Shown: positions 36,620 to 38,978 of the stretch, one piece after another
How the letters are laid out: each line of letters opens with the position of its first letter
Numbering within the stretch: position 1 is the first letter of the stretch
Source of the DNA: a virus
Lineage: Duplodnaviria; Heunggongvirae; Uroviricota; Caudoviricetes
Virus record (IMG/VR): IMGVR_UViG_2622736468_000003
Reading direction: 5' to 3' (one strand)
Length of the DNA: 64,000 bases
The notes under the pieces: generated by a model
Told to the model about the DNA's origin: nothing
Database searches by the model: none
What the model saw: only the letters and a program-made list of their open reading frames with translations
Made by a program: the position numbers and the translations under genes

Positions 36620-36888
36620 GTATTGATGCAGTGGTAAGCCGGATACCGGAGGCAGTGTATGTTCTGACGCAGGACGATGATACGCCAGTTCCACTGGAAG
36701 ATGCTTATGTTAACCCACTGGTGGACTGGATGTTGTTTCGCGCTTTCAGTAAGGATGCTGCCGGTGGCGCAGAATCGGGGCTGGCTGCGCAGCATTATCA
36801 GAGTTTTGTTGAGCAACTTGGGATCAAACAGGGGGCAGACAGTGCATTGTCTGCCCGTAAAAAAGTGTTTAACGGAGGTGGAGTGTGA
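36553..36888 (+). CDS. hypothetical protein (possibly the 3' part of a longer gene)
   Basis: track ORF. Confidence 0.35.
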
Positions 36889-38978
36889 GTGTTGTTGTTT
36901 CGGGGACGCTGAAATCTCCTGATGGTGAGGCGATATCAGGAGCAAATATTACCCTGACGGCGCTGACAGTTTCACCGGATGCGCTCAGCGGCACCAGTGC
37001 GTCGGCAGTGACCCGTGAAGGTGGATATTACGGAATGACGATGGATCCGGGGGAGTATGCGGTTTCGGTGACGGTGAAAGGGAAGACTGCTGTCTACGGA
37101 CGTGTGCGTATTGAGGGGACCGAAAGTACGGTGACGCTCAATATGCTGTTACGCCGCAGTCTTGTTGAGGTGAGCATACCCGGAGAACTGCTGACAGATT
37201 TCCGGCAGATACAGAATAATGTGGCTGATGACCTTGCCACTATTCGTCGCCTGAATGAAGACACGGCGACAAAAAACACTCAGGCCACACAGTCAAAAGA
37301 CAGTGCAGCAGCCAGTGCGAAGAGTGCATCTGACAGTGCAAAGACGGCAACCAGCAGGGCGGCTGAAGCCGGACAAAAAGCCAGTGAAGCTGCAGAAGCA
37401 GCGACCCGGGCATGCGAGTCTGAAAAGGCCGCGGCAGCAGACGCGAATGATGCCAGACAACATGCTGAAACCGCCAGAGTGGCTCATGAGGCCGCCGGAG
37501 ACGTTCTTAAACGTGCTGAGGCTGCTACGGTTAGTGCTGAAGAGGCCAGGCGTATGGCAGAGAATGCCAGAGGCCCTAAAGGTGATACCGGACCGAAAGG
37601 TGATGCAGGCCCTCGTGGAGAAACAGGTCCACAAGGCGCACAAGGACCACGCGGTGAAACAGGACCGGTGGGGCCGCAAGGAGAGCGGGGGATTCAGGGG
37701 CCTGCTGGTCCACGAGGTGAAACCGGGGCCAGAGGTGAAAAAGGAGACCCCGGAGACCCGGGGGACCACCCGGGCCGAAAGGTGATGCGGGACCTAAAGG
37801 TGACACCGGACCAGCCGGTCCCGCAGGTGAAAAAGGTGAGCCGGGAGAACGAGGGTCTCAGGGAGAGCAGGGGCTACGCGGACCTGCAGGAGAGAGAGGC
37901 CCGGCGGGGCCGCAGGGACCGAAAGGAGATGCCGGTGCGACAGGTCCGGCAGGTCCGAAAGGTGAACGAGGCGAAGCTGGGCCTCAGGGCCCCCGCGGGG
38001 AGCCTGGTCCGGCGGGCAGCGCAGCAAATGTGGTGGACGCGACGACGGCACAGAAGGGAATTGTGCAGCTAAGTAGTGATACTGCCAGTAATGACGAAAC
38101 AAAGGCTGCCACGTCGAAGGCTGTGAAGGCGGCAATGGATGAGGCCAAGGCGGCGAGACAGAAGGCAGAAGAGGTTGCTGCAGGTGGTGGCGTTCCCAGC
38201 CCGAAGGGAGACAAGGGCGATACGGGTCCGGCAGGCCCACAGGGACCGAAAGGGGATACGGGAGCCGCAGGCCCGGCAGGCGCACAGGGGCCAAAAGGTG
38301 ACAAAGGCGATCCGGGGGTGGCTGGACCAGCAGGCCCGGCAGGCGCACAGGGGCCAAAAGGTGACAAAGGCGATCCGGGGGTGGCTGGACCAGCAGGCCC
38401 GGCAGGCGCACAGGGGCCAAAAGGTGACAAAGGCGATCCGGGGGTGGCTGGACCAGCAGGTCCGGCAGGTGCGCCGGGGCGAAAGGCGATAAAGGTGATC
38501 CGGGAGTAGCTGGACCAGCAGGTCCGGCGGGGCCACAGGGACCGAAGGGAGACACTGGAGCCCCGGGCAAGGAACAGAACTGCTTACTACTGCCAATACA
38601 TGGACTCAGGCACAAACTTTTAATGGTGGTATTAATGGCAATTTGACGGTGACCGGAAACGGCTCATTTAACGATGTTCAGATCCGTTCGGATAAACGCA
38701 ACAAGCGAAATCTGGTAAAACTGGATAATGCGTTAGATCGTCTGGAGGCACTTACTGGTTATCTTTACGAGATACAGTACTCTGCCGACGGTTGGCAAAC
38801 GTCGGTTGGTTTAATTGCTCAGGATGCACAAAAAGCATTGCCTGAACTGGTAACTGAAGACGCAGACGTTATATCTGGTGAAAAACGTCTGCGTCTTAAC
38901 TACAACGGCATAATTGCATTGTTAGTCGAGGGCTTTAAAACACTTCGTCATGAGATTAAAGAACTCCGGGAGAAGTAA
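36885..38978 (+). pseudogene. tail fibre with collagen-like Gly-X-Y repeats and C-terminal S74-type intramolecular chaperone domain; three -1 frame disruptions
   Basis: frames 36885..~37765, ~37765..38509 and ~38565..38978 each carry part of one protein; breaks at G5 (37760..37764), G4 (38474..38477) and C4 (38561..38564) runs; C-terminus SDKRNKRNLVKLDNALDRLEALTGY. Confidence 0.6.
38268..38456 (+). repeat. 63-bp perfect tandem repeat x3 inside the collagen-like region
   Basis: GGCCCGGCAGGCGCACAGGGGCCAAAAGGTGACAAAGGCGATCCGGGGGTGGCTGGACCAGCA repeated three times, encoding [21 protein letters not shown]. Confidence 0.85.

Follow-up and report, generated by a model that had tools for sequence, protein, structure and literature searches.

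The window analysed here is a stretch of 64,000 nucleotides of a Caudoviricetes genome (IMG/VR record IMGVR_UViG_2622736468_000003), which belongs to a defective, stx-negative, short-tailed prophage resembling 933W and other Shiga toxin (Stx) phages, located beside ynfF in Escherichia coli MRE600. This prophage carries the gene of a collagen-like tail fibre whose coding sequence is divided among three frames. We consider it very probable that this is a single fibre gene, in which three G/C homopolymers were undercalled in the PacBio-only assembly CP014197.1 and no mutation occurred, and that its product would trimerise, cut off its own C-terminal chaperone and receive an adhesin at its tip. 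The undercalls are supported by the comparisons with a sister assembly, with the population of related genomes and with E. coli C227-11, and by the spectrum of the differences.

The fibre gene starts with GTG at 36885, a start that is also annotated in relatives and has an overlap of 4 nt with the stop of the upstream adaptor gene. Three-frame translation of 36885..38978 showed that the coding frame passes from 0 to 2 (~37762), from 2 to 1 (~38478) and from 1 back to 0 (~38563), each time by a -1 step, before the stop codon at 38976..38978. The original prediction, made from the letters alone, had placed these changes inside G or C homopolymers, and they were located in the runs at 37760, 38476 and 38561; the single continuous open reading frame (ORF) of ~697 codons that it expected after the addition of one base per site has 698 codons (Table 1). 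The first break sits in the Gly-Gly codons (GGG GGA) of a collagen interruption conserved as G-X-P-G-G-P-X-G, which explains the presence of a G6 run at this point, and one base restored there recreates the interruption GDPGGPPG at residues 290-297.

The composition of the repaired protein agreed with what had been proposed for it. The long Gly-X-Y runs cover residues 230-295, 297-380 and 442-564 (Pfam Collagen, E = 7.9e-41), and the S74-type C-terminus is recognised by PF13884 at residues 603-658 (E = 6.9e-12). CarboxypepD_reg, Collagen, Phage_fiber_2 and Peptidase_S74 were all detected in the Pfam search, and relatives with 99% identity are annotated as 'tail fiber protein', which supports the identification as a collagen-like tail fibre with an S74 chaperone. 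The features observed in this gene are not a chance pattern.

Positions 2182016-2204160 of CP014197.1 (locus L040) correspond to window positions 20190..42334 with 100% identity, no mismatch and no gap. CP014197 is the chromosome of E. coli MRE600 (PMC12851939), and this genome was obtained by SMRT (single-molecule, real-time) sequencing alone, using P5-C3 chemistry, v3 SMRT Cell, HGAP 2.0 and Quiver at 184x, with no short-read polishing (PMC4825418). The record lists no protein product for the adaptor gene, the fibre gene or the 541-aa tail gene. A second public assembly with this prophage, GCA_901482365.1 (contig CABEEG010000004.1), has in common with the window the insertion of an IS66 element, a 728-bp deletion and the ynfF/ynfE flank, and it is treated here, judging by its sequence, as a sister assembly of the same clone as MRE600. 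The proteins VTQ33337.1 and VTQ34037.1 of this assembly are labelled 'Streptococcus pneumoniae' despite the E. coli ynfE/ynfF genes and the MRE600-type prophage, and the deposit appears to be mislabelled.

The comparison of the two assemblies over 43 kb (window 20832..64000) revealed one single-nucleotide polymorphism (SNP), at 37080, and five 1-nt gaps, and nothing else; between 38512 and 64000 there are no mismatches. The SNP causes the exchange G66R in the fibre protein, and the 698-aa product of GCA_901482365.1 is identical to the fibre of the window but for this exchange and the three restored bases. Three of the five gaps are in the fibre gene, one is in the upstream adaptor gene and one in the downstream tail gene, and in the sister assembly all three genes are intact ORFs, with 698 aa for the fibre, 216 aa for the adaptor and 541 aa for the tail protein. 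The adaptor protein, once repaired, is an exact match to a protein present on 941 contigs.

A genuine pseudogene would be the main alternative for these breaks. In this case, the MRE600 lineage would really carry all three -1 frameshifts, as well as the breaks in the adaptor gene and in the 541-aa tail gene, produced by slippage in G/C runs without selection. We regard this as quite improbable, and the kind of differences found between the assemblies argues strongly against it. All five indels are in G/C runs of at least 4 bases, and all of them shorten the run in the window; contractions affect 5 of the 199 runs of this class and none of the 1236 A/T runs of at least 3 bases, nor any of the 57 A/T runs of at least 6. 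Indels represent five of the six small differences; for clones that are nearly identical, such a ratio of indels to substitutions is the opposite of natural spectra (p = 5.5e-5, with indels taken as 10% of natural changes, to 5e-3). Three separate hits in one gene that had already been inactivated would be gratuitous, and the source platform used long reads only. The differences observed are of the kind left by homopolymer consensus errors: only G/C-run contractions and one SNP in 43 kb, where the restoration of the bases recovers conserved ORFs.

The contracted forms are also absent from the related genomes. In the RefSeq complete genomes of E. coli, a collection that does not include CP014197.1, none of 27 genomes had the contracted 61-mer of site 1 and none of 63 had that of site 3; the best matches span 62 nt. 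Among IMG/VR contigs, the uncontracted run is present in 6 of 7 at site 1, in 26 of 26 at site 2 and in 18 of 18 at site 3. The lone exception at site 1 is an O104:H4-type contig (L008), which has two contractions in common with the draft genome of C227-11. Over 4.6 kb, this draft (AFST01000005.2, L056) shows 3 G/C-run contractions and no mismatch relative to the finished C227-11 genome (CP011331.1, L060), and its fibre gene is split into ORFs of 299 and 242 aa. One of these contractions is in the same G6 run as site 1 of the window, and the finished genome is intact there. Therefore, this G6 run had already failed once in a draft assembly, and an identical undercall is an artefact in that strain.

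Some observations weigh on the opposite side. The prophage is genuinely defective in both assemblies, with IS66 in place of the small-terminase gene and nanS-p interrupted by an IS3-family element, so that selection would not oppose real frameshifts. Five errors in 43 kb would be many more than Quiver usually leaves at 184x. The contractions are clustered in 36.5-41.2 kb beyond what the density of runs predicts (p = 0.005), with none in 42..64 kb; a local coverage dip or mis-mapped reads of paralogous prophage fibres are possibilities for this cluster. The two assemblies differ by the SNP and by a rearrangement to the left of the IS3-family element, and are therefore separate sublines or data sets in which real subline differences exist. 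In addition, homopolymers are natural hot spots for real indels as well. A relative derived from short reads, P0071 (Logan, 416 aa), is out of frame from ~residue 252, and genuine decay of this fibre gene family thus happens elsewhere. Finally, the case for error is indirect, as it is built on the comparison of assemblies rather than on reads. With this reservation, the preference of the original prediction for read errors over decay was upheld by the PacBio-only source, by the longer runs and single ORF of the sister assembly and by the two further G/C contractions in neighbouring genes.

Two other explanations take the short runs as functional, and both are far less probable than decay. According to the first, which we consider very doubtful, the Pro-Gly and Gly-Gly G/C runs of collagen-like fibre genes would be real hypermutable sites, and the changes in MRE600 and C227-11 would represent subpopulations with the fibre, adaptor and tail genes turned off; if true, this would be an on/off switch for prophage tail production in the style of a contingency locus. 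The second and weakest, which supposes that the fibre is made through three programmed -1 ribosomal frameshifts or transcriptional slippage, or that the G/C runs are on/off contingency loci, is scarcely credible: sites 1 and 3 formally match X XXY YYZ in the incoming frame (C CCG GGG and C CCG GGC) and the same G6 run is short in two unrelated assemblies, but Pro-Gly codons generate such patterns automatically, site 2 is outside the pattern, known transcriptional slippage needs longer runs than G5 and C4, three events in succession would yield negligible protein, the second short example is the draft-assembly error of C227-11, and no frameshift signal is conserved, because a single uninterrupted ORF is present in the same clone and in all other relatives examined. 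Programmed -1 frameshifting was thus rejected, since site 2 is not slippery and the relatives show no conserved split frames.

Other searches around the undercalls gave negative results. The error sites did not overlap by eye with the MRE600 m5C motifs RCCGGY and CCWGG (PMC4825418). A literature search for an Illumina re-sequencing of MRE600 returned nothing useful, and short-read contigs of this strain sought through the 553-aa terminase, which is not strain-specific, gave no informative Logan contig. Exact look-ups of the 395-aa N-terminal fibre fragment, the IS-truncated esterase and the IS66 fragment found no match; the same occurred for both versions of the repaired 698-aa protein, although GCA_901482365.1 lists a 698-aa product. 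A contraction in a G run at 11627, relative to strain NMBU-W12E19, was considered as a further error of the window and rejected, since the window has an intact 137-aa DUF977 ORF there and the annotated frameshift belongs to the reference.

The domains of the repaired fibre, their coordinates and those of the other features are presented in Table 1.

Table 1. Features of the tail-fibre gene, its frame breaks and the surrounding prophage (positions in the window).
Feature	Position	Strand	Description
Tail-fibre gene	36885..38978	+	698 codons + stop after restoring three bases; single 698-aa ORF in GCA_901482365.1 (L032 5054..7150)
N-terminal beta-sandwich domain	36897..37142	+	Residues 5-86; Pfam CarboxypepD_reg, 34.0 bits (cut-off 32.3)
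Ala-rich low-complexity segment	37182..37571	+	Residues 100-229; 29% Ala, 10% Glu, 8% Leu+Ile+Val
Collagen domain 1	37572..38023	+	Residues 230-380; one register interruption, G-D-P-G-G-P-P-G, residues 290-297
Phage_fiber_2 / Pf2 repeat	38042..38167	+	Residues 387-428, between the collagen domains; PF03406, E = 1.4e-14
Collagen domain 2	38207..38573	+	Residues 442-564; Gly-X-Y run, Pfam Collagen
63-bp (21-residue) tandem array	38267..38554	+	TRF: 4.6 copies, 90% matches, score 443; three exact copies, then diverged ones
Distal tip of mature fibre (predicted)	38574..38687	+	Residues 565-602, ending ...NDVQIR; alignment with S16 gp37 immediately ahead of the cleavage site
S74-type intramolecular chaperone	38688..38975	+	Residues 603-698; PF13884; S603 and K608 in SDKRNK
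Frame break 1	37760..37764	+	G5 in window; G6 in sister assembly and all relatives
Frame break 2	38476..38479	+	G4 in window; G5 in sister assembly (codons GGG GCG, Gly-Ala)
Frame break 3	38561..38564	+	C4 in window; C5 in sister assembly and relatives
1-nt contractions, window vs sister assembly	36576; 37760; 38476; 38561; 41127		C4->C3; G6->G5; G5->G4; C5->C4; G5->G4; sister assembly longer
Portal adaptor gene	36239..36888	+	216 aa; split by C4->C3 at 36576; Pfam SU10_adaptor, E = 4e-32
Gp38_N-domain protein gene	39064..39576	+	170 aa; PF21721, E = 7.9e-20, residues 1-40
Tail protein gene, not part of the fibre	40207..41831	+	541 aa; split by G5->G4 at 41127
IS66 element	26071..28512		Replaces 728 bp of relatives, including nearly all of the small-terminase gene; shared by sister assembly
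IS3-family element	20832..22141		1310 bp; 108-aa and 296-aa ORFs, rve domain; splits nanS-p sialate esterase gene
Second IS66 copy	3076..5516		99.9% identity with the other copy; a partial copy of 582 bp follows at 5517..6098

The N-terminal domain would attach the fibre to the virion; phage_tail_N (PF08400), a profile related to CarboxypepD_reg, scored 18.4 bits on it, below the cut-off of 26.6. The Ala-rich segment that follows is the putative counterpart of 'PCoil', the trimeric coiled coil of collagen-like proteins from prophages of enterohaemorrhagic E. coli (EHEC). No match to PfC (PF06820) was found in the Pfam search of the repaired protein. The Peptidase_S74 match has 45.9 bits, against a cut-off of 22, and starts exactly at SDKRNK. 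The C-terminal 137 residues match gp37 of phage S16 (PDB 6f45_A, E = 1.9e-13) across its mapped autocleavage site, and the structure 7dc3, of MYRF, was also matched by these residues in the PDB search.

The tandem array in the second collagen domain holds three exact units, at 38268..38330, 38331..38393 and 38394..38456, with 0 mismatches among them, as had been read from the sequence; an exact periodicity of 63 nt extends over 38267..38460 (194 nt). The array, including the three exact copies, is identical in the sister assembly. The comparison among relatives with the same C-terminus showed that they possess 2, 3, 4 or 6 copies of the 21-residue unit, with second collagen domains of 86, 107, 128 and 170 residues, proteins of 656, 677, 698 and 740 aa and exact tandem spans of 104, 131, 194 and 319 nt, respectively. 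The copy-number polymorphism is therefore real. The collagen helix rises 0.286 nm per residue, and from this geometry one unit would add ~6 nm to the fibre. The 63-bp units would expand or contract by recombination or slippage, each event shifting the fibre by 21 residues. Thus, of the suggestion that the number of repeats modulates fibre length, the variation itself was observed among relatives, while the change in length is predicted from collagen geometry.

The comparison with known proteins placed the fibre close to EPclB (Z1483 of BP-933W and ECs1228 of Sp5, both with 645 aa), which has the layout PfN-PCoil-Col-Pf2-Col and the conserved interruption G-X-P-G-G-P-X-G (Ghosh et al. 2012, PMC3368898). 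Both share the two collagen domains separated by Pf2, the interruption in the first of them, a collagen length that varies in multiples of three residues and their occurrence in a short-tailed Stx-type prophage, and the N-terminal domain and Ala-rich segment of the fibre would take the places of PfN and PCoil in the same order of modules. They differ in the C-terminus, which is Peptidase_S74 in MRE600 and PfC in EPclB, and in the second collagen domain, which is longer in MRE600 through the 63-bp units. In this it is comparable to the EPclC and EPclD classes, which have 'different C-terminal regions', and EPclA/B-type proteins were shown by experiment to form dumbbell-shaped trimers that contain a coiled coil and a stable collagen helix (PMC3368898).

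The close relative WP_000117970.1 ('tail fiber protein', 677 aa), from E. coli O10:H32 NMBU-W12E19, has 99.1% DNA identity over the whole gene and the same prophage position, with integration on the ynfF side, but one 63-bp unit fewer. The tip of the long tail fibres of S16 and T2 (PDB 6F45) also carries an S74-type chaperone at the C-terminus, in which (S/R)^SD(x)R(x)K is the cleavage motif, and is followed by a gene with a Gp38_N domain. On the other hand, the shaft in MRE600 is a collagen triple helix with a coiled coil and not the gp37 fold of T-even phages, the prophage is of podovirus type, and the adhesin is without the polyglycine-rich receptor domain. The chaperones of endosialidases and tailspikes (MEROPS S74; Schulz et al. 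2010, via PMC7917993) resemble that of the fibre in the PF13884 score above threshold and in the Ser and Lys at the domain start, but here the domain is on a collagen-like fibre and not on a triple beta-helix spike, and its cleavage is predicted. The streptococcal proteins Scl1 and Scl2 and Lcl of Legionella share with the fibre the Gly-X-Y triple-helix repeats. Membership in these families was rejected, as the fibre has no LPXTG anchor or signal peptide and its NCBIfam matches owe their scores to the repeats and stay far below the cut-offs (160 vs 325, 149 vs 500 and 139 vs 400).

By analogy with these systems, we infer trimerisation, autocleavage and adhesin docking. Three chains would trimerise into a fibre composed of the beta-sandwich, the Ala-rich coiled coil, a first collagen helix of ~43 nm, the Pf2 knob and a second collagen helix of ~35 nm. 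The N-terminal domain may dock on the SU10-type portal adaptor encoded immediately upstream, by analogy with phage SU10, in which the adaptor dodecamer gives six docking sites for trimeric long fibres (PMC9509320). At the other end, the 96 C-terminal residues would act as an S74 chaperone that nucleates the folding of the trimer and is afterwards released by self-cleavage at the R602-S603 bond through a Ser603/Lys608 dyad. The cleavage sites mapped or proposed in other phages are DLNVS^SDRRIKK in S16 and DVYIR^SDGRLKI in the fPS phages (PMC7917993). The corresponding sequence of the fibre is NDVQIR|SDKRNK, where S603 and K608 are aligned to SDRRIK of S16, and cleavage is therefore predicted between R602 and S603, with release of the 96-residue chaperone.

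In S16, removal of the chaperone exposes the surface where gp38 docks (PMC7917993). The distal tip of the MRE600 fibre is, in the same manner, the predicted docking surface for a Gp38-type adhesin: the exposed ...NDVQIR end would be capped by the downstream Gp38_N-type protein, which would contact the receptor, as in T2 and S16. Residues 1-44 of this 170-aa protein align to gp38 of S16 (6f45_D) with both Trp residues kept, and it is probably the receptor-binding adhesin of the fibre tip. The order of a chaperone-bearing fibre gene followed by a Gp38_N gene is kept in all relatives with this C-terminus.

Two results are unfavourable to this mechanism. For the C-terminal 137 residues, a shallow alignment yielded an AlphaFold2 model with a mean pLDDT of 55 and a pTM of 0.36, which is insufficient to confirm the fold. 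Beyond ~residue 44, the Gp38_N protein had no PDB, Pfam or NCBIfam match, and its adhesin role is deduced from the N-terminal domain alone. An alternative, unlikely in our judgement, is that the C-terminal domain is retained, or that the fibre tip binds the receptor itself and the Gp38_N protein is a chaperone absent from the virion, as gp38 of T4. The C-terminal domains of the related EPcl proteins act as trimerisation modules that are kept in the recombinant protein (Ghosh et al., PMC3368898), but those are PfC domains and not S74, and in the MRE600 fibre the S-D-x-R-x-K motif is preserved together with the residues that flank the cleavage sites of S16 and the fPS phages. Similarly, the likeness of the Gp38_N protein to S16 gp38 is confined to its first ~44 residues, with no polyglycine-type receptor domain, which would suit a chaperone; nevertheless, Gp38_N is the attachment domain of T2/S16-type adhesins, both conserved Trp residues are present, and the constant pairing of the two genes in the relatives also favours release of the chaperone and docking of the adhesin.

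Downstream of the Gp38_N gene, a 70-aa ORF at 39652..39864 matches only the C-terminal part of DUF4376, and a relative annotates it as a pseudogene without the N-terminus. This ORF appears to be what is left of a further accessory gene for tail fibres.

With respect to the prophage as a whole, no RIP or SLT_beta genes were found between the Q region and nanS-p (17842..19268, from the DnaD_N gene to nanS-p), and no tRNA genes were found in the window. The Stx1 phage POCJ13 (L053) has RIP and SLT_beta genes at the corresponding position. The large terminase (553 aa) is probably intact and only the small-terminase gene was lost; the prophage therefore cannot package DNA on its own. As it is defective elsewhere, its viability as a phage cannot be concluded from an intact fibre ORF.

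In the sister assembly, the IS3-family element is bordered on its left by a recE (Exonuc_VIII) gene and not by the 5' part of nanS-p (L039 1..642 and L054 1..2017, vs window 20190..20831), and from this junction the left ~20 kb of the prophage appear to be deleted or rearranged. In the second IS66 copy of the window, a G4->G3 difference at 4484 splits the transposase into 186 and 353 aa, which may be another undercall. In addition, an inverted repeat of 309 bp with 96% identity, at 15536..15844 and 59871..60179, links the region of an early antirepressor-like gene with the far right end of the prophage.

Collagen-like fibres of Stx-type prophages, S74 chaperones and Gp38-type adhesins are already known, and the annotation of many E. 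coli genomes includes intact genes almost identical to this one. As a known kind of gene affected by an assembly artefact, this case is of little biological importance. However, the MRE600 reference CP014197.1 is widely used, and its homopolymer undercalls make at least three phage structural genes look like pseudogenes. GC-rich DNA coding for collagen is prone to such undercalls, as the failure of the same run in the C227-11 draft illustrates. For the biology of these fibres, the series of alleles with 2, 3, 4 and 6 units may be considered a natural experiment on fibre length and adsorption.

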